Shown piece after piece: positions 3,954 through 46,032 of a DNA stretch of 64,000 nt; the stretch's first letter is position 1, and each line of letters opens with the position of its first letter. The DNA comes from Dehalococcoidales bacterium. Its GTDB lineage: Bacteria; Chloroflexota; Dehalococcoidia; Dehalococcoidales; Fen-1064. The DNA is taken from assembly GCA_036396095.1 (NCBI GenBank), contig DASWLM010000013.1, forward strand, positions 6,817-70,816. Direction: 5' to 3'. The notes under the pieces were generated by a model. It saw only the letters and a program-made list of their open reading frames with translations, had not been told where the DNA came from and searched no databases. The position numbers and the translations under genes are program-made.

Positions 3954-5870
3954 ATGAAACCGAAAGCGAGAAATACCGGGCTGTATTACTTGCTGCTCTT
4001 GGTAAGTATCGCAGCGCTGGTTGTTTTTATTATCCGTGTACCGCAACCAAAACCCCAGGAAATCCCCATCAGCCAAGTCATTAACATGTCTCAAAATGAG
4101 GAAATCGATAAAATCAACGTCAATGGTGAATGGTTGACCGTCTATGCCAAAGACAAGACAGAATACCGAAGCTATATCGGGTACTCTTCCATCTGGGATG
4201 TCACCGATTTGAATCTTCATGGGGTGTCCGTATACGAAATTAAACCAGGTAGTTTCGACTGGAGCAGTTTGCTCTGGACAACCGTACCACTCGTGCTTTT
4301 TGCCGTACTCATTTTCTTTATGTTCTTCCGTACACGTGGTATCAATAACCAAGCAATGTCTTTCGGGAGGAGCCGTGCCCGTCTTTTCCCGGGGGATAAA
4401 CCATCTGTGACCTTCGATGATGTCGCCGGTGTCGATGAAGCCAAGCAGGAACTGCACGAGGTTGTGGATTTCCTGAAGTCGCGTGAACGTTTCCAGACGT
4501 TAGGCGCGCGCATACCCAGAGGTGTTCTCCTGATAGGTCCGCCGGGAACAGGGAAAACCCTGCTTGCTCGTGCGATTGCCGGCGAAGCGGGTGTGCCTTT
4601 CTTCTCCATCAGCGGCAGTGAGTTCGTGGAGATGTTTGTTGGTGTTGGCGCTTCCCGGGTGCGCGACCTCTTCGATAATGCCAAGCGCCATTCTCCCTGC
4701 ATCATCTTTATTGACGAAATCGACGCCGTCGGACGGCACCGTGGGGCGGGGTTGGGTGGTAGTCACGATGAGCGTGAACAGACCCTGAACCAGATTCTCA
4801 CCGAAATGGACGGGTTCGATACCAATGTAAATGTCATCGTTCTCGCCGCTACCAACCGTCCCGATATCCTTGACCCGGCTTTGCTCCGTCCCGGGCGTTT
4901 CGACCGCCGGGTAGTGCTCGATTTACCAGACGTGATAGGACGCATTGGTATTCTTAAAGTACACATCAAAAACAAGCCGATGGCGCCATCCGTGAATCTT
5001 GAGACACTGGCAAAAGAGACTGCTGGCTTTTCCGGAGCCGACCTTGCTAACCTGGTTAATGAAGCGGCAATACTTGCCGCACGTCGTGGCAAGAAGGCAG
5101 TTGAGATGGACGAGTTGGAAGAGTCGATTGATAAGGTCATCGCCGGTCCGGAGCGGCGCAGTAAGCGTATAAGCCCAAAGGAGAAAGAAAAGATTGCTTA
5201 TCACGAGGCGGGACATGCCGTTGTTGCCAGGTTATTACCCAATGCCGAGCCACCCCACAAAATATCCATTATTGCGCGTGGCATGGCTTTAGGATATATG
5301 AAGCAACTCGAAGAAGACCATTCGCTGCAGGCGGTTTCTCAATTGAATGATAAAATCGCGGTGTACCTGGCTGGTCACGCGGCCGAGAAATTGATTTATG
5401 GTGAAAGTGCATCAGGTGTCCAGGAGGATATTAAACGGGCAACTTACCTGGCACGTACAATGGTCACCGACCTAGGTATGAGCCAAAAACTGGGCCCGCG
5501 TACATTTGGTGATAAGCAGGAACTAGTCTTCCTCGGGCGGGAAATTTCCGAGCAGAAAGACTACAGCGATAAAACGGCGGAAGCTATCGACCACGAAATC
5601 GATGAGATTATTCATGCACAGTATGAGGTTGCCACGAAAATTCTCACCGATAACAGGGAAGTGCTTGTTAAGCTGACCGAAACACTCATTGCTAAAGAGA
5701 CTCTCGACTATGACGAACTTGAGGCTCTCTTCAAAGAAATCGTTCCTGTGGCGTCATTACCGGAGAAGATAATCTTCCCTGAGTTATTGAAAAAACCGGT
5801 ACCGGCTGGGGGTAGTGCTTCGCCCGCCACTAACATAGTCTCAGAAACGCCTCCCCCCCAATCCACATAG
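3954..5870 (+). CDS. ftsH: ATP-dependent zinc metalloprotease FtsH
   Basis: N-terminal TM segments, Walker A GPPGTGKT, Walker [10 protein letters not shown], and zinc motif HEAGHA. SD GAGGA lies upstream. Confidence 0.95.
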
Positions 5871-5876
5871 TCCTGC

Positions 5877-6290
5877 GTGCTTATGATTGAGATTACCGAT
5901 AAACCAATCGCCCCGGAGCAGGTCATCATGCGTGCCAAAACAAAGGGAAGCGGCTGTGTGGTGACTTATGTCGGTGTCATCAGGGACACTTCTCATGATA
6001 AATCCGTCGTTTCTGTCGAATATCAGGACAGGGATGGCAAAGCAGTTGAAAAACTCCGGATGCTGGTGGCGGATGCTAAACAGAAGTGGCAATTAGAAAA
6101 TATCGCCTTCACGCACCGCATTGGCAAGCTCAGGGTGGGGGATATTAACCTGGTGATTGCGGTCGCCGCCGGACACCGCGAGGAAGGGTTTGCCGCCTGC
6201 CAGTACCTCATCGACCGTTTCAAGCAGTCACTGCCCACGCATAAGATTGAGACCTATGCGGATGGTTCGGTCAAGGTGGGCGGAGACTAA
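5877..6290 (+). CDS. moaE: molybdopterin synthase catalytic subunit MoaE
   Basis: MoaE-like pattern (VTYVGVIRD, THRIGKLRVGD, VAAGHREEGFAACQYLID). The start is GTG 5877 or ATG 5883, just after the ftsH stop. Confidence 0.8.
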   Translation: MLMIEITDKPIAPEQVIMRAKTKGSGCVVTYVGVIRDTSHDKSVVSVEYQDRDGKAVEKLRMLVADAKQKWQLENIAFTHRIGKLRVGDINLVIAVAAGHREEGFAACQYLIDRFKQSLPTHKIETYADGSVKVGGD

Positions 6291-41193: not shown

Positions 41194-41404
41194 GAGGTTA
41201 CATCCTTAATTTGCGGTACGCATTATTGGCGGATGTGAAGTGTATTTTTATGCTAACTAGCTTGCCTTATGCAATTCGCCTCCTCTTATTTGGGAATTCA
41301 AGGCAGTTGGGTTTCAGCGGATACTTGAATTGTCTCCCTTGTGGCGGTATAGTGGGGAAAGATTTAGCTTCATTGCTACGAGTGAAATGAGTGGTTTTCC
41401 GGTG

Positions 41405-42946
41405 ATGGCGAACAAAAAGAAAGAACATCAAAGCGCATCTCAAACTGAGCGTGAAGGATTCAGTCTTGCACTGATTGAACCAGTGATGTTTTCTTTACTA
41501 AGGAAAATTATGGCATACCTTCAGCCACGAAAGGTAAAGGCTTATGTAGTTGGTGGGTTTGTCCGTGACGCATTGCTGGGTCGTGAAACGGCTGACATCG
41601 ACCTGGCAGTCACGGCAGATGCACTGGAGATTGCCCTCGGTATGGCAGAGGCACTTAACGGTACATATGTCCTGCTAGATAGCGAAAACAAAGTCGGGCG
41701 GGTGGTTCTTACTTCCAGAAAGGCGGAAGGAGAACAAAGCGTAATCGATATCTCGACCATCGCCGGTACACTGGAAGACGACTTGGCACGGCGCGATTTT
41801 TCTATAAATGCTCTGGCACTCGACCTCAAGGAGCTGGTGGCAGGTAAGGCGGTTGCGAGTCTCGTCGACCCATACAAGGGGCGTGACGACCTTGACCGCA
41901 GTATCGTGCGCAGTATCCGCGAGGAAAACCTATCAGCCGACCCGGTGCGCCTTTTACGTGCCGTCCGTCTTGCCGTCGAGTTGGGTTTCCGTATTGAACA
42001 AAAGACTAAGGAACAAATCCGTCGTTCTGTCGCTTTACTGGCGTCGGTTCCCGGGGAACGCATTAGAGAAGAGCTGTTGCGTCTTTTTGCCATTTCGCGG
42101 GGAGGGCAATTTCTCTTTGACCTCGATGAATTGGGGTTACTGACGGTTCTGATTCCCGAACTTGCCATGACTAAAGGCGTGGAACAACCAGTAGAGCATC
42201 ACTGGGATATTTTTGCTCACTCCGTAATGACAGTGAGCGCCGTCGATTACCTGTTACATCAGGGGATGTGGGAGTATCAACAGGATAACATCCTTGAGAT
42301 GGTGCCGTGGTCGGAAGAATGTGTCCGTCATTTTGAAAAATCCGTTGCCGTCGGTAGTAGTCGGCGGACACTTCTCAAATTGGCGGCGCTCCTCCATGAT
42401 ATTGCCAAACCACAGTCCAAGGCGATTGATGGTAAAGGACGGATGCGGTTTCTGGGACATTCGGAACAGGGAGCCGAAATGGTCTCCCATATTCTGGAAA
42501 GGCTCAGATTTAGTACCCGAGAAATAAAATTGGTGGCTGACGTGGTAAAATACCATTTAAGGCCTACCCAAATGGGTCAGCCGCCGTCACACCATGCCAT
42601 ATATCGGTATTTTCGTGACACCGGCGATGCGGGTATAGATATCCTGTATTTGAGCCTGGCTGACCATCTGGCAACGAGGGGACCGGGATTGATTCCGGCA
42701 AATTGGCGAAAGCATGCCGATGTTGTGCGACATGTTCTGGAGGAACATTACAATCAGGAAAAAATCACCCTGCCGCCCAAACTGGTTGACGGCAACGACC
42801 TGATGAATATCTTCGGGTTAAAGCCGGGACCGAAATTGGGGGAACTTCTGGAAATGGTACGGGAAGCTCACGCAACTGGGGAGTTGACGACCAGGGAAGA
42901 AGCGTTAGAATATATACATAACGTATTAACCGAGGGAAAGAAGTAA
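41405..42946 (+). CDS. cca: CCA-adding enzyme / poly(A) polymerase-family tRNA nucleotidyltransferase with HD domain
   Basis: Head-domain motif AYVVGGFVRDALLGRETADIDLAV, RRDFSINAL, and the HD region LLHDIAKP...FLGHSEQGA. The start is uncertain (41330, 41387 or 41405). Confidence 0.85.
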   Translation: MANKKKEHQSASQTEREGFSLALIEPVMFSLLRKIMAYLQPRKVKAYVVGGFVRDALLGRETADIDLAVTADALEIALGMAEALNGTYVLLDSENKVGRVVLTSRKAEGEQSVIDISTIAGTLEDDLARRDFSINALALDLKELVAGKAVASLVDPYKGRDDLDRSIVRSIREENLSADPVRLLRAVRLAVELGFRIEQKTKEQIRRSVALLASVPGERIREELLRLFAISRGGQFLFDLDELGLLTVLIPELAMTKGVEQPVEHHWDIFAHSVMTVSAVDYLLHQGMWEYQQDNILEMVPWSEECVRHFEKSVAVGSSRRTLLKLAALLHDIAKPQSKAIDGKGRMRFLGHSEQGAEMVSHILERLRFSTREIKLVADVVKYHLRPTQMGQPPSHHAIYRYFRDTGDAGIDILYLSLADHLATRGPGLIPANWRKHADVVRHVLEEHYNQEKITLPPKLVDGNDLMNIFGLKPGPKLGELLEMVREAHATGELTTREEALEYIHNVLTEGKK

Positions 42947-43714
42947 ATGAAGAGGACGCATAGCAGGTTTTCACCTGTAATCCTCTGGGTTCTCTTATCT
43001 TGTTTAATTTTATTCGTTGGTTGTTCAAAATCAAACGTTGAATCCAGTATGGAATTACTGTACCAGATGGATCTGTCTACGATTGATAAAGGCAAACAAG
43101 AAGAAATTATTAACGACACGATCAAGGTGTTGACTTTGCGTGTCCAAGCTCTAGGTATTAAAAAACCCATGATTGAACGACTTGGTGAGAGTCAAATAGT
43201 TATCAGATTCTCTGGGGTAACTATTACTGATGTTCAAGCGGAGCGCATTGGCCGAACGGCGCTACTGGAATTTCGCGAACTAGTTCAGACTAAGGATGCC
43301 CAAGGCAATGTAATTGAGGAGAGATGGGTACCAGCGACCGGCACCTATAATGGAGAGATAAAAGTACTGAACAGCAGTTACTTAAAGAGAAATACAGAGA
43401 TAAGAGTTAGTAGTCTTGGTGCAATAGAGCTTTATTTCGAGTGGGATGAAGAAGGTGCTGTACTCTTTAAAGAGATAACCACAAGACTACTTAACAAACC
43501 CTTGGGTCTTTACGAAGGTTCCGGAGATGATGCACTACCTCTCTTAGGAGAAGATGGAGAACCGATAGCGCCAATTGTACAGGCGGTGCTTACGACAGAT
43601 TGTGTAATCACCGGACTAAGTCGTCAGGAAGCTACAGAACTTTCTAAACAATTGAATGCCGGACGTCTACCCATTCAATTGAAGTTAATTGGAGTGCAGT
43701 CTACAACACATTAA
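42947..43714 (+). CDS. lipoprotein paralog of the SecD periplasmic (P1 head) domain
   Basis: Signal and lipobox (LSCLILFVGC). Residues ERIGRTALLEFRELVQT...QLNAGRLPIQLKLIG align without gaps to SecD ERIGRTALLEFRELVQT...QLNAGRIPVPLELIG. The DNA repeat is 43242-43693 versus 44078-44529. Confidence 0.8.
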   Translation: MKRTHSRFSPVILWVLLSCLILFVGCSKSNVESSMELLYQMDLSTIDKGKQEEIINDTIKVLTLRVQALGIKKPMIERLGESQIVIRFSGVTITDVQAERIGRTALLEFRELVQTKDAQGNVIEERWVPATGTYNGEIKVLNSSYLKRNTEIRVSSLGAIELYFEWDEEGAVLFKEITTRLLNKPLGLYEGSGDDALPLLGEDGEPIAPIVQAVLTTDCVITGLSRQEATELSKQLNAGRLPIQLKLIGVQSTTH

Positions 43715-43741
43715 AGTCATAAACTAGAAGGAAAGAAATAA

Positions 43742-45109
43742 ATGTCAAGAAACAGCTGGGTATTCGTTACTATCATCATCATATTTGCTCTGAGTCTTAT
43801 CGCGCTACTCGTAAACCCAATAAAAATTGGGAATTTCACAAGGAGTGGCATTGTTTACGGTCTTGACTTGGAAGGCGGCGTCCGTCTGGTTTATAAGGCA
43901 GACCTGACAGGGGTGGAGGAAAGTAATGAAAAGGAAGTTGTCAACGATGTCATTGCCGTTATAGCCAACCGTGTTAATCCGCTGGGTGTTACCGAACCCA
44001 ATATCGAGCACCGTGGTGCCGACCAGATAGTGGTGGAACTCCCGATGCCCAAAGGCGGTCTTACAGAAGTGCAGAAGGAGCGTATCGGCCGGACGGCACT
44101 ACTGGAATTCCGCGAACTGGTTCAAACTCTGGATGCAGATGGTAATGTAATAGAGGAGGAATGGATACCGGCAACAGGTACTTATAACGGAGAGACGAAG
44201 GTTCTGAATAGTAGCCTGTTTAAAACAAATACGGAGCTTAGAGTTAGTAGTCTTGGTGCAGTTGAGCTTTATTTCGAGTGGAATGAAGAGGGCGCGGCGC
44301 TCTTTAAGGAGATAACCACGAGGTTGCTTAACAAGCCTTTGGGGATTTACGAAGGTTCGGGTAATGATGCACTACCTCTCTTGGGGGAAGATGGGAAGCC
44401 GATAACACCCATTGTACAGACGGTGCTTACAAATGACGGAGTCGTCACGGGTCTCAGCCGTAAAGAAGCTGCAGAACTTTCACAACAATTGAATGCCGGG
44501 CGTATACCCGTTCCATTAGAGTTAATCGGGGAAAAGCTAGTAGACCCGTCGTTGGGAACTGACTTCATTAAATTGAGTGTGCGGGCAGGTATCATCGGTA
44601 TTGCGGCAGTTATGCTTTTTCTGATTGCCTACTACCGTGTTCCGGGTGTGGTTGCCGCACTGGCGCTCGCTTTCTATGGAGCGTTAACACTGGCAATTTT
44701 CAAGCTAATACCCGTCACGATGACCCTATCAGGCATTGGCGGTTTCGTGTTGTCTATGGGTATGGCAATCGATGCCAATGTGCTTATCTTTGAGCGTATG
44801 AAAGAGGAGCTTCTGGCAAAAACGACATTAAGCTCCGCTATGGAATCGGGGTTCAGCCGGGCGTGGACTGCTATCTGGGATAGCAATGTGACCACTATCA
44901 TCGCCTGTCTGGTGCTTTATTGGGTAGGAGATACAGTCGCCTTTGGCGGTACGGTGAAGGGTTTTGCGCTGACTCTGGGTATAGGCGTGCTGGTCAGTAT
45001 GTTCACTGCCGTTCTCGCCAGCCATACCTTATTGCGTATGGTGGTTCGTACAGGATTGTCAAAACAAACCGAACTCTTTAAGCCATATACGGGAAGGAGA
45101 CTGGCGTGA
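43742..45109 (+). CDS. secD: protein translocase subunit SecD
   Basis: N-terminal TM helix, periplasmic domain, and C-terminal 5-TM RND-like bundle (SMGMAIDANVLIFERMKEE). Confidence 0.95.
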   Translation: MSRNSWVFVTIIIIFALSLIALLVNPIKIGNFTRSGIVYGLDLEGGVRLVYKADLTGVEESNEKEVVNDVIAVIANRVNPLGVTEPNIEHRGADQIVVELPMPKGGLTEVQKERIGRTALLEFRELVQTLDADGNVIEEEWIPATGTYNGETKVLNSSLFKTNTELRVSSLGAVELYFEWNEEGAALFKEITTRLLNKPLGIYEGSGNDALPLLGEDGKPITPIVQTVLTNDGVVTGLSRKEAAELSQQLNAGRIPVPLELIGEKLVDPSLGTDFIKLSVRAGIIGIAAVMLFLIAYYRVPGVVAALALAFYGALTLAIFKLIPVTMTLSGIGGFVLSMGMAIDANVLIFERMKEELLAKTTLSSAMESGFSRAWTAIWDSNVTTIIACLVLYWVGDTVAFGGTVKGFALTLGIGVLVSMFTAVLASHTLLRMVVRTGLSKQTELFKPYTGRRLA

Positions 45110-46032
45110 TAAATATTGTAAGTAATAGGCTGTGGTTTTTTATTATTTCTAGCATTTTACTGGTGGTGGGTATTGTATCCCTCTCGATTTTCGGATTAAA
45201 GACTGGAATTGATTTTGCTAGTGGTTCTCTTTTAACCGTGAAATTTGAACAGACGGTTATTCCTGTCGACGTTGAAAAAGAACTGCCCGGTTTTGGTTTC
45301 GTCGGCACAGTCGAAACTGATGCTCAAGGTAATATCGTCATCCGGACGGTAGAATTAACCGCGCAGGAGAAAACGACTCTTAAGGACGATTTAACCGCTA
45401 AGTTCGGGGCTTTGACAGAGCTGGGTTTTGAGAATGTCGACCCGATTGTTGCCAAACAAACCGCGCAGGCGGCTATTTGGGCTACAGCAATCGCATCAAT
45501 TGGTATCCTCCTCTATATCGCTTTTGCCTTCCGCAAGATGCCCAAGCCTTTCCATTTCGGTGTATGCGCTGTAGCTGGACTCCTGCTGGATGTCATAGTT
45601 GTGCTGGGAGTTTTCTCGATTCTGGGTAAAGTGGCGAATTGGGAGATTGACTTGGCGCTGGTTACTGGTATCCTGACTGTCATTGGTTACGCGGTCAATG
45701 ATACCATTGTTGTCTTTGACCGTATCAGGGAGAACCAGAAGAGGTACCCGGGGGTGGATTTCGGGCTGGTGGTCAACAATAGTCTGATGGATGTGATGAC
45801 TCGTGAACTCGCGACCGGCGTGGGTGTGCTGTTTGTGCTGATTGCCCTCTTGCTTTTTGTCGGTCCGACCATTAAAAACCTGGTCGTTGTACTGATGGTG
45901 GGCATATATTTCGGCACGTTTACCTCGGTTTTTGTGGCAGCCCCGCTACTGGTTGTCTGGGAAAAGGGTGGCTGGGGGAGTTTATTCTCCCGAAAGCAAA
46001 TACCGAACAAAACAGCCGAAGTCCGGGGTTAA
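45106..46032 (+). CDS. secF: protein translocase subunit SecF
   Basis: GTGA overlap with secD. Pattern GYAVNDTIVVFDRIREN. Confidence 0.9.
   Translation: MINIVSNRLWFFIISSILLVVGIVSLSIFGLKTGIDFASGSLLTVKFEQTVIPVDVEKELPGFGFVGTVETDAQGNIVIRTVELTAQEKTTLKDDLTAKFGALTELGFENVDPIVAKQTAQAAIWATAIASIGILLYIAFAFRKMPKPFHFGVCAVAGLLLDVIVVLGVFSILGKVANWEIDLALVTGILTVIGYAVNDTIVVFDRIRENQKRYPGVDFGLVVNNSLMDVMTRELATGVGVLFVLIALLLFVGPTIKNLVVVLMVGIYFGTFTSVFVAAPLLVVWEKGGWGSLFSRKQIPNKTAEVRG

Follow-up and report, generated by a model that had tools for sequence, protein, structure and literature searches.

A 255-aa open reading frame directly 5' of secD in a Dehalococcoidales genome encodes a lipoprotein-type paralogue of the entire periplasmic P1 domain of SecD, comprising both base and head. 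It lies in a 64,000-nt stretch of contig DASWLM010000013.1 (assembly GCA_036396095.1), referred to here as the window. Our account of this gene combines a lipid-anchored P1 domain, an old partial duplication of secD with later gene conversion of the head, and passive capture of exported chains by the product; taken as a whole, we consider it probable while allowing appreciable doubt. The features of the locus are as follows.

41330-42946, + strand: CCA-adding enzyme gene (Pfam PolyA_pol, HD and tRNA_NucTran2_2)
42947-43714, + strand: lipoprotein gene, 255 aa, paralogue of SecD residues 1-263 (ORF and homology)
42947-43024, + strand: predicted lipoprotein signal peptide with n-region MKRTHSR, hydrophobic core and lipobox LFVG-C26, alternatively LLS-C19 (PROSITE-type lipobox regular expression)
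43037-43240, + strand: diverged N-terminal half of the P1 base, residues ~31-98, SecD_1st (37% amino acid identity, dN 0.58, dS ~2.3)
43241-43663, + strand: P1 head, residues 99-239, tract probably homogenised with secD (direct repeat of 44078-44500; 82% amino acid and 79% nucleotide identity)
43664-43714, + strand: last beta-strand of the P1 base, short tail (…IQLKLIGVQSTTH) and stop codon; I240 and Q241 replace SecD V-P
43715-43741, + strand: 27-nt spacer (AAGTCATAAACTAGAAGGAAAGAAATAA, followed by ATG), putative tandem-duplication scar (aligns with the 3' end of the CCA gene)
43742-45109, + strand: secD, 455 aa, complete with TM1, P1 and TM2-6 (TIGR01129 304 bits; Pfam SecD_1st, P1_head and SecD_SecF_C)
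45106-46032, + strand: secF, 308 aa, 4-nt overlap with the secD stop codon (TIGR00966 237 bits, cut-off 160)

Architecture of the lipoprotein

The lipoprotein and the adjacent SecD share 157 of 263 aligned residues (BLASTP, E = 9e-108). Only SecD_1st (E = 5.8e-11) and SecDF_P1_head were recognised by Pfam in the lipoprotein, SecD having SecD_SecF_C in addition; PF21760 scored 42.1 bits (cut-off 27) and PF22599 25.3 bits, just below its cut-off of 27, the genuine adjacent SecD itself reaching only 23.2. With the SecD equivalog model TIGR01129 (cut-off 244.4) the lipoprotein scored 63.6 bits and SecD 304. The SecD_SecF_C membrane domain (TM2-6, proton pathway) is absent from the lipoprotein in the Pfam scan and the stop codon falls 6 residues past the end of P1, just short of SecD TM2, so the protein lacks the proton-conducting membrane domain, and its sole hydrophobic segment is the N-terminal signal peptide. 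No PPIase/parvulin, PrsA N/C chaperone or SurA-like domain was found in it with Pfam. The NCBI annotation of the gene is a shorter hypothetical protein, VGA85_02560, starting at M35.

Similarity to SecD changes abruptly along the protein. Residues 99-249 align without gaps to SecD 113-263 (ERIGRTALLEF to LKLIG) with 124 of 151 identical, exactly the hand count of the preliminary description, while the N-terminal part retains ~37% amino acid identity, homologous yet more diverged as that description had it, with a sharp step near residues 97-101. In the DNA, the segment 43242-43693 recurs in secD 837 nt further on (359/452 identical, 79.4%), a spacing also returned by a repeat search of the window; the offset of 836 nt reported earlier is wrong, as it gives only 29% identity, with random offsets averaging 25% and reaching 33%. 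The copy had also been taken for the SecD head only, and this needs widening to the whole of P1. ORFs, Pfam matches and lipobox bear out the earlier view of a lipoprotein without the SecD membrane domain directly 5' of secD.

The AlphaFold model of the lipoprotein (pLDDT 76 overall, <50 at residues 1-29 and 84-92 in the base part, with a strand at E245-254) was compared by Foldseek with known structures, a comparison with SecD P1 that had been suggested beforehand. Its top matches were indeed SecDF P1, the best being the isolated P1 domain 3AQO (E = 4e-12), which was also matched in the sequence search, and the full SecDF structures 5XAN and 5YHF were matched as well. Relative to the P1 domain of Thermus thermophilus SecDF (3AQO, 3AQP, 5XAN, 5XAP, 5YHF), the whole of P1 is homologous, with a SecD_1st base and a SecDF_P1_head; unlike SecDF, the lipoprotein has no TM2-TM6 or proton pathway, and a cleavable lipoprotein signal peptide takes the place of TM1. 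The base has further lost the SecD-invariant motifs LDLxGG and GVTEP, the latter being replaced by G(I/V)KK in the window protein and its orthologues P0009 and P0146 and by the related GVKN in the lipoprotein of L003, and it lacks the PMPxGG insertion of group I SecDs. The lipoprotein-specific positions 240-241 are common to three lipoproteins, and the tail GVQS(T/I)T(H/Y) is common to the window protein and its orthologue on contig L013.

The signal peptide and lipobox noted in the preliminary description (MKRTHSRFSPVILWVLLSCLILFVGC) were confirmed. Following the definition in PMC12462473, a lipobox was taken as a positively charged n-region, a hydrophobic core and [LVI..][ASTVI..][GAS]-C within the first ~35 residues, and MKRTHSR-FSPVILWVLLSCLILFVG-C26 has this form. 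The PROSITE PS51257 pattern accommodates C19 as well as C26; in the alignment of 22 family members, the cysteine column that is ≥90% conserved falls at C26. Lipoboxes are also present in P0009 (LTAGAC) and P0146 (LALVGC), and 40 of 42 complete family members passed the PROSITE-type regular expression. A literature search returned nothing specific on lipoprotein-processing enzymes in Dehalococcoides.

Gene order and the duplicated junction

The arrangement CCA-adding enzyme gene, secD, secF is conserved in about 80 Dehalococcoidia loci, and in ~70 of these ~80, among them the closest relatives L005 and L035, the lipoprotein gene is missing from between the first two; a single origin would therefore need several losses or relocations. 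The extra gene was absent from all nine loci of a scan of GTDB representatives, so that metagenome contigs are the basis for sampling the taxa that carry the lipoprotein. A closer alignment (A4) search likewise returned mostly canonical CCA-secD-secF loci, with stand-alone P1 genes only at L060 and L070. A search of related genomes for the split arrangement nevertheless found it in independent assemblies: the Logan contig L001 has the order CCA gene, lipoprotein gene, secD (then secF), and the JGI contig L013 has the lipoprotein gene followed by secD with a near-identical spacer.

The spacer carries the trace of the presumed duplication. The last ~15-30 nt of the CCA gene (...GAGGGAAAGAAGTAA), which supply the lipoprotein gene with a Shine-Dalgarno-like GAGG, are the left copy of a duplicated junction, and the spacer between the lipoprotein gene and secD is a copy of this 3' end with its Shine-Dalgarno region, now serving secD. 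The same TAGA(A/G)GGAAA variant occurs in the spacers of the window, L013 and L001. The start context of the lipoprotein gene is homologous to that of secD, and the signal peptide derives from SecD TM1. No terminator-like sites were found within 42947-45109.

The window comes from a metagenome-assembled genome, and the tandem copy could in principle be an artefact of assembly. This explanation is effectively refuted: the DNA copies are only 79% identical and the N-terminal protein parts ~37%, each copy has its own start, stop and spacer, and independent assemblies of different samples in the NCBI, JGI and Logan data recovered the arrangement.

Origin of the gene

The lipoprotein appears to be a mosaic, with a lipoprotein-specific base and C-terminal end and a head that groups with the secD of the same genome. 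In the head, 22 quartet sites grouped sequences by genome and 2 by paralogue type, and in the base 1 grouped by genome and 7 by paralogue type (head vs base, Fisher P = 8e-5). Over 165 nt compared between the window and L013, 9 sites grouped by genome, 1 by orthology and 2 otherwise (binomial P = 0.004), the by-genome sites including synonymous ones. Together, the quartets and the nucleotide sites indicate that part of secD was duplicated in tandem long ago and that gene conversion has since acted repeatedly on the head, an origin that we regard as well supported by these sequence comparisons. Trees agree for the head, in which the window lipoprotein fell within its own secD clade in 158/200 bootstraps, each lipoprotein joined the SecDs of its own lineage (158/200 and 193/200) and the three lipoproteins were monophyletic in 0/200. 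In the base tree the window lipoprotein fell inside its own SecD clade in 0/200 bootstraps and the three lipoproteins were monophyletic in only 3/200; their grouping there could partly reflect long-branch attraction. The high similarity of the heads, for which gene conversion had been offered earlier as an alternative to recent duplication, thus does reflect conversion, judging from head trees, nucleotide sites and quartets.

Runs of identity between lipoprotein gene and secD are significantly longer than overall divergence would predict, both in L013 (42 nt, P = 0.016) and in L001 (26 nt, P = 0.02). No long identical tract was found in the window, where the longest run is 21 nt (P = 0.52), and conversion there is therefore ancient and deduced from comparisons. 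We propose that the last ~20-30 nt of the CCA gene and the first ~265 secD codons were copied in tandem in the ancestor of a Dehalococcoidales subclade, that the base half then diverged quickly under its own, weaker constraint, and that the ~420-nt head tract (43241-43663; partner 44078-44500 in secD) would have been repeatedly homogenised with the adjacent secD head, the last such event in the window genome probably being old (dS about 0.7-1). We rejected the idea that the lipoproteins form an ancient clade of their own with no relation to the neighbouring secD, as the head nests among the local SecDs and the spacer duplicates the CCA/secD junction.

An origin without conversion, in which each lineage duplicated secD in tandem separately and rather recently and the base then changed very fast under relaxed or positive selection beside a constrained head, would fit several observations. 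The best BLAST matches of the base are SecDs (44-46% identity, with other lipoproteins at 33% or less), most related loci lack the gene, and the L001 and L003 lipoproteins share 72% of head residues but only 20% of base residues, so that, whatever the origin, the base changes about five times faster. Within the window, NG86 dS between lipoprotein gene and secD is 2.3 for the base and 1.0 for the head, and the fraction of identical codons (10/26 in the base, 72/122 in the head) does not differ significantly (Fisher P = 0.08), a comparison that is underpowered and suggestive only. Repeated independent duplication nonetheless seems unlikely to us. The lipoproteins of the window and L013 are clearly orthologous in tail and spacer, yet each shares lineage-specific nucleotide states, synonymous ones among them, with its own secD (9:1:2); the scar variant is common to three lineages; the characters G(I/V)KK, A65 and I240 are shared among lipoproteins; these jointly lack the PMPxGG insertion, having both head insertions (indel table); and the long identical tracts in L013 and L001 also count against it.

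Concerted evolution of bacterial tandem paralogues has a classic example in tufA/tufB. As there, lineage-specific substitutions are common to the paralogues of one genome, and different stretches of the gene give conflicting phylogenies; the difference is that here conversion would be limited to one subdomain of a partial duplicate, leaving a stable mosaic.

Selection and divergence

In several lineages the gene evolves under purifying selection, and its reading frame is uninterrupted in the window, L001/L002 and L013; dN/dS is 0.10-0.18 between the head copies of the lipoprotein gene and secD (dS 0.66-0.99), ~0.25 between the base parts and 0.13-0.22 between the lipoprotein genes of the window and L013. 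Head dS between the two paralogues is as large as between secD orthologues of different species, which does not fit the recent duplication proposed in the preliminary description; nor does a duplication intermediate, also proposed there, as the gene is intact and selected and its base part and scar point to one old duplication. In the lipoprotein copy of L003 the signal peptide seems to be interrupted by a frameshift.

Some of the head conservation could result from copying out of a selected secD and not from selection on the lipoprotein. Taken further, the gene would be a non-functional remnant that looks conserved only through conversion, which could imitate purifying selection in the head; the shorter NCBI annotation and the apparent L003 frameshift would suit such a remnant. 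We consider this very unlikely, because the ORF has remained uninterrupted in the window, L001/L002 and L013 even though synonymous sites are saturated, the unconverted base keeps its low dN/dS, a confident fold and its Pfam match, and the lipobox cysteine is kept across dozens of clusters, most of them not adjoining any conversion donor. A pseudogene was rejected on intact ORFs, the conserved cysteine and dN/dS below 1.

A wider family of P1-only lipoproteins

A profile search covering 1.84 billion representatives, with architectures sorted by our own heuristic, returned at least ~60-80 clusters (50% identity) of P1-only proteins, mostly lipoproteins. Membership in the family (profile A5) was defined by a signal peptide with a cysteine, P1 base and head, a stop within ~10 residues and no TM domain. 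Among the best 149 matches, 42 were complete lipoproteins ending right after P1, 16 were N-anchored P1-only proteins, 21 ended at P1 with an unclear N-terminus and 37 were true SecDs. Named sources of P1-only proteins were Dehalococcoidia, Dehalococcoidales or Chloroflexota. Because the window sequence is one of the 22 in the profile, its family score of 264 bits (SecD, 230) is partly circular. A protein search with the family profile returned mainly true SecDs, with P0276 and P0299 as the only new members, and a profile of the N-terminal 110 residues of three lipoproteins had no match among 5.8 billion proteins.

All five distant members examined, and L003 likewise, are encoded away from secDF, suggesting that most of the family usually does not adjoin it. 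The P1-only proteins are labelled 'hypothetical protein' by NCBI and SecD or SecD/SecF fusion protein by JGI, and our literature search found no description of a stand-alone or lipoprotein SecD P1. The earlier impression that such a protein had not been described therefore stands for the literature searched, while the protein is no one-off: P1-only lipoproteins appear to constitute a widespread, uncharacterised family in public metagenomes.

Proposed function

SecDF is understood to work as a motor driven by protons, with a P1 head that seizes exported proteins; precursors emerging from SecYEG make contact with the amphiphilic cavity of the head and the periplasmic region binds unfolded protein, while a ratchet mechanism has not been excluded and the contribution of capture alone remains open (PMC5974789). 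By homology, the lipoprotein is inferred to be a membrane-tethered capture module for exported polypeptides that is uncoupled from the proton-motive force. After Sec export and lipidation, the P1 module would be anchored on the outer side of the cytoplasmic membrane, where its conserved head may bind unfolded exported chains as the SecDF head does. Lacking a motor driven by the proton-motive force, it is limited to passive action, and it might serve as a ratchet or holdase near the translocon, against back-sliding or aggregation, in parallel to or upstream of the SecDF head. Such an extra substrate-capture module, one of the roles suggested from the start, seems the most plausible function.

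As a distinct but secondary possibility, the lipoprotein may be an accessory subunit or regulator of SecDF that docks on SecD/SecF (base to P4, head to head) as a second head, decoy or brake. The gene is co-oriented with secD and 27 nt 5' of it with no terminator-like site between, its head tracks the cognate SecD head in three lineages and could be kept matched for mutual recognition or for exactly the same substrates, and lipoproteins built into the Sec/SecDF complex have a precedent in wall-less Mycoplasma (bioRxiv 10.1101/2025.04.25.650208). Against docking, no part of the lipoprotein evolves faster than the base, the region that packs against P4 and the TM domain in SecD, and the SecD-invariant motifs are missing from it, which argues against attachment to SecDF in the manner of the SecD base; the distant members and L003 lie away from secDF, and conversion between tandem repeats needs no selective explanation. 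For the same tandem pair one may also imagine functional coupling of the two heads, the lipoprotein acting as a first-contact and hand-over module or as a sequence reservoir swapping cassettes, with homogenisation selected and not incidental; we think this doubtful. If true, it would mean that the P1 head can do something useful without the proton-motive force, and it would bear on the question of ratchet versus power stroke in SecDF. The surface-exposed SecD head is a hot spot of insertion and variation in this wall-less lineage.

The passive capture module that we favour can be set beside known Sec accessory systems. Vibrio carries SecDF1/SecDF2. Two SecDF forms are described in Streptomyces coelicolor (PMC4139356). 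These are also lineage-specific duplications of Sec accessory components, but they are complete transporters with membrane domains, whereas here only a lipid-anchored periplasmic domain was duplicated. PpiD/YfgM of E. coli are membrane-anchored chaperones on the trans side of the Sec translocon. Mdp lipoproteins take part in the Sec 'dome' of Mycoplasma pneumoniae (bioRxiv 10.1101/2025.04.25.650208). With these and PrsA of Firmicutes the lipoprotein would share its proposed mode, a membrane-tethered, ATP- and PMF-independent action on unfolded chains leaving SecYEG in the absence of an outer compartment; none of them is homologous to it, and the analogy is functional only.

Significance

The locus of the lipoprotein gene and secD offers a clean example of conversion limited to one subdomain of a partial duplicate. 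The family has been hidden in databases as 'hypothetical protein', as mis-named SecD or behind truncated starts that remove the signal peptide. As soluble, naturally stand-alone P1 domains, its members would lend themselves to binding and structural studies. In many metagenomic clusters of Dehalococcoidia and Chloroflexota the capture domain appears to have been cut from the motor, tethered by lipid and kept under purifying selection, and these P1-only lipoproteins suggest that the P1 domain has an activity independent of the motor.

A lipoprotein-type copy of the SecD P1 domain

Four consecutive genes make up the locus, and farther neighbours in the window are housekeeping genes (nuoA/nuoB on the opposite strand, a CDF transporter, a LysE-type translocator and a NurA-domain protein).

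Genes of the secDF locus
41330-42946, + strand, CCA-adding enzyme (CCA) gene, identity backed by Pfam/NCBIfam
42947-43714, + strand, 255-aa ORF (the lipoprotein), matching SecD_1st and SecDF_P1_head only
43742-45109, + strand, secD (TIGR01129, 304 bits; cut-off 244)
45106-46032, + strand, secF (TIGR00966, 237 bits)

The 255-aa protein is homologous to P1, the periplasmic domain of SecD comprising a base and a head, yet fails the tests for SecD itself: the Pfam scan finds SecD_1st (E = 5.8e-11) and, as the preliminary description had stated, no SecD_SecF_C membrane domain, while TIGR01129 yields 63.6 of the 244.4 bits required. BLASTP aligns it to the window SecD with 157/263 identical residues (E = 9e-108), and the ungapped block from ERIGRTALLEF to LKLIG contains 124 identities in 151 residues, exactly the count made earlier by hand. 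The preliminary description's observation of a stand-alone P1-type ORF beside secD is therefore confirmed, with its interpretation as a whole supported in part. The copied region is not the head domain alone but the entire P1, base included, from SecD TM1 to just short of TM2, and the two DNA copies line up when offset by 837 nt (359/452 identical, 79.4%) rather than 836 nt, where identity is at the chance level of 29%.

The N-terminus, MKRTHSRFSPVILWVLLSCLILFVGC, satisfies the PROSITE lipoprotein pattern at C19 (in LLSC; 43001-43003) as well as C26 (in FVGC; 43022-43024), in agreement with the signal peptide and lipobox originally proposed. The nearly invariant Cys of a 22-member family alignment falls on C26, which favours this residue as the putative lipidation site. 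The NCBI annotation (VGA85_02560, a 221-aa hypothetical protein of a Dehalococcoidales MAG) starts at M35 and drops both signal peptide and lipobox (42947-43048). The ATG at 42947 is the preferred candidate for the true start because its upstream context (GAGGGAAAGAAGTAA before ATG) is homologous to that of secD (GAAGGAAAGAAATAA before ATG), the orthologs P0009 and P0146 also begin with a signal peptide plus Cys, and no Shine-Dalgarno-like sequence was found ahead of M35. The same start context is also homologous to the CCA-secD junction of relatives without the extra gene. Within the CCA gene 3' end, TTGACG-16-TAGAAT at 42884-42911 resembles a sigma-70 promoter (10/12) and precedes the lipoprotein start by 36 nt; it amounts to a consensus match only, in conserved coding sequence.

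Age of the duplication

Assembly duplication was rejected, since the head copies of lipoprotein and secD differ at 21% of nucleotides and the arrangement recurs in Logan and JGI contigs. A search of relatives, as the preliminary description advised, recovered the order CCA, lipoprotein, secD, secF in Logan contig L001, and a lipoprotein fragment (84% identity), followed by a near-identical spacer and secD, in JGI contig L013; a second Logan contig, L002, encodes a lipoprotein identical to that of L001. The suggestion of a recent duplication did not hold: dS between the heads is 0.99/0.66 (NG86/YN00; dN/dS 0.10-0.18), a divergence as large as that separating the window secD from its ortholog in L005, the nearest GTDB relative (dS 0.4-1.0). 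Window and L013 lipoproteins give a dN/dS of 0.13-0.22. Apparent single-base frameshifts are present in two Logan contigs, splitting the secD N-terminus of L001 into 52-aa and 448-aa ORFs (1609-1770) and placing the signal-peptide-like segment of the L003 lipoprotein out of the P1 ORF frame (4858-4962); they stem either from indels in the assembly or from true inactivation.

A mosaic gene with a probably converted head

The window lipoprotein gene is a mosaic, with amino acid identity to SecD jumping from ~37% (residues 30-98) to ~82% (residues 99-249). Among the related sequences compared, each lipoprotein head is similar to that of the SecD from the same lineage: the window head is 81% identical to window SecD and 86% to the close relative P0002, and the L001 head 78% to L001 SecD, whereas the window and L001 lipoproteins share just 61%. 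Neighbour-joining bootstraps of the head placed the window lipoprotein within the clade of its own SecD in 158/200 replicates and the L001 and L003 lipoproteins with the SecD of L001 and L018 in 193/200, with monophyly of the three lipoproteins in 0/200; for the base, the window lipoprotein fell within its SecD clade in 0/200. Quartet sites between window and L001 group by genome or by paralog type in a ratio of 1:7 in the base and 22:2 in the head (Fisher P = 8e-5). Lipoprotein-specific states return past residue ~239 (I240, Q/S241 in place of SecD V-P), so the homogenised tract is placed at ~43241-43663.

These patterns bear out the gene conversion offered as an option in the preliminary description, and one old duplication with later head conversion appears well supported over repeated fresh duplications. 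Repeated duplications are disfavoured by several shared characters. The 27-nt spacer duplicates the 3' end of CCA, and a TAGA(A/G)GGAAA variant is common to the window, L013 and L001 spacers and found in no CCA 3' end. Three lipoproteins (window, P0009, P0146) have G(I/V)KK instead of SecD GVTEP, and that of L003 has the related GVKN. The PMPxGG insertion of all 'group I' SecDs, the lipoproteins' own SecDs included, is missing from the lipoproteins, which do have both head insertions of this clade. By position the lipoproteins of the window and L013 are orthologs, and they share a tail, GVQS(T/I)T(H/Y); yet in 165 nt of head sequence each lipoprotein pairs with its own secD at 9 informative sites, synonymous ones included, against 1 by orthology and 2 the other way (P = 0.004). 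Identical runs between lipoprotein and secD reach 42 nt in L013 (P = 0.016) and 26 nt in L001 (P = 0.02); the window pair has no unusually long run (P = 0.52), and synonymous divergence differs between base and head at no more than a suggestive level (P = 0.08). In ~70 related loci, the nearest relatives L005 and L035 among them, secD directly follows CCA. A single duplication therefore calls for several losses, and precise loss via the short duplicated junction is plausible. This conversion history is unusual in being restricted to one subdomain.

A family of P1-only proteins

A profile of four lipoproteins searched against 1.84 billion cluster representatives gave 1619 matches (E <= 1e-3). 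An ad hoc heuristic divided the best 149 of these into classes including 42 complete lipoproteins that stop a few residues past P1, 16 more N-anchored P1-only proteins, 21 proteins ending at P1 with an ambiguous N-terminus and 37 genuine SecD or SecDF. Variants include base-head inserts, head-only lipoproteins of 156-184 aa with the P1 head directly after the lipobox (P0134, P0135, P0153, P0161, P0176, P0186) and large multidomain proteins of 595-1177 aa that include a P1 module (P0129, P0132, P0139, P0142, P0160). Conserved housekeeping genes surround P0134 in two assemblies (L097, L098).

Public databases either misname the family or leave it without annotation: NCBI names, where given, are 'hypothetical protein [Dehalococcoidia/Chloroflexota bacterium]', and JGI uses 'preprotein translocase subunit SecD' and once 'SecD/SecF fusion protein'. 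No description of a stand-alone or lipoprotein P1 was found in the literature searched, in keeping with the preliminary description; the domain is familiar, and the stand-alone lipoprotein architecture is new and widespread.

All five distant members examined lie away from secDF in varied contexts, as does the L003 lipoprotein, so the window gene, adjacent to secD, is the exception, and its position explains why conversion can occur there. On two unrelated contigs (L003 5740-6045, L096 7906-8385), a P1-only lipoprotein gene is closely followed by a comM/yifB-like Mg-chelatase gene, an arrangement that may be a second recurrent location. On L095, an AglB-core-like (oligosaccharyltransferase-type) gene (5024-5938) directly precedes a distant member, with putative surface proteins (PQQ beta-propeller, BACON/PA14) farther upstream.

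SecD itself varies among relatives, with an insertion hot spot in the loop of the P1 head flanked by LEFRE and W(I/V)PA. In the nearest relatives lacking the lipoprotein, namely L005 (4255-4700), L035 (a SecD of 594 aa), P0121 and P0124, this loop holds ~146 aa of Gly/Thr-rich 'GGSGYTxAPxVTI'-type repeats, and in six other Dehalococcoidia SecDs (L023, L028, L031, L067, L071, L072) acidic Glu-rich inserts of 30-100 aa. A 519-aa SecD in L007 (3641-5200) has an extra N-terminal segment matching SecF residues 7-104 (31% identity, tblastn).

Predicted structure and possible function

The AlphaFold model of the window lipoprotein (mean pLDDT 76) has a disordered segment at residues 1-29, with base and head both confidently folded. 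Comparison with SecD P1 structures, another suggested check, gave 3AQO, the isolated P1 of T. thermophilus SecDF, as the best PDB match (E = 4e-12), then full SecDF (5XAN, 5YHF, 5XAP) over ~250 columns; sequence search recovers the same entries.

SecDF conducts protons through its membrane domain, and the amphiphilic cavity of its P1 head contacts precursor proteins, with a pure capture (ratchet) contribution still possible (PMC5974789). SecDF duplications described so far comprise whole transporters (PMC4139356), whereas here P1 alone is duplicated, in lipoprotein form. The lipoprotein has no membrane domain and a head under purifying selection, and its base has lost the SecD-invariant LDLxGG and GVTEP motifs, located within or close to the conserved part of SecD through which the membrane domain is coupled to P1. 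The main rival reading, a docked SecDF subunit or decoy, is made less likely by the dispersed genomic locations of family members and the fast-evolving base. The most economical reading is that the protein is probably a lipid-tethered module at the membrane surface, uncoupled from the proton-motive force, that would bind unfolded exported chains. It would then work like PrsA and the Mycoplasma Mdp lipoproteins, trans-side translocon chaperones of bacteria without an outer compartment (Mdp: bioRxiv 10.1101/2025.04.25.650208), to which it is unrelated.
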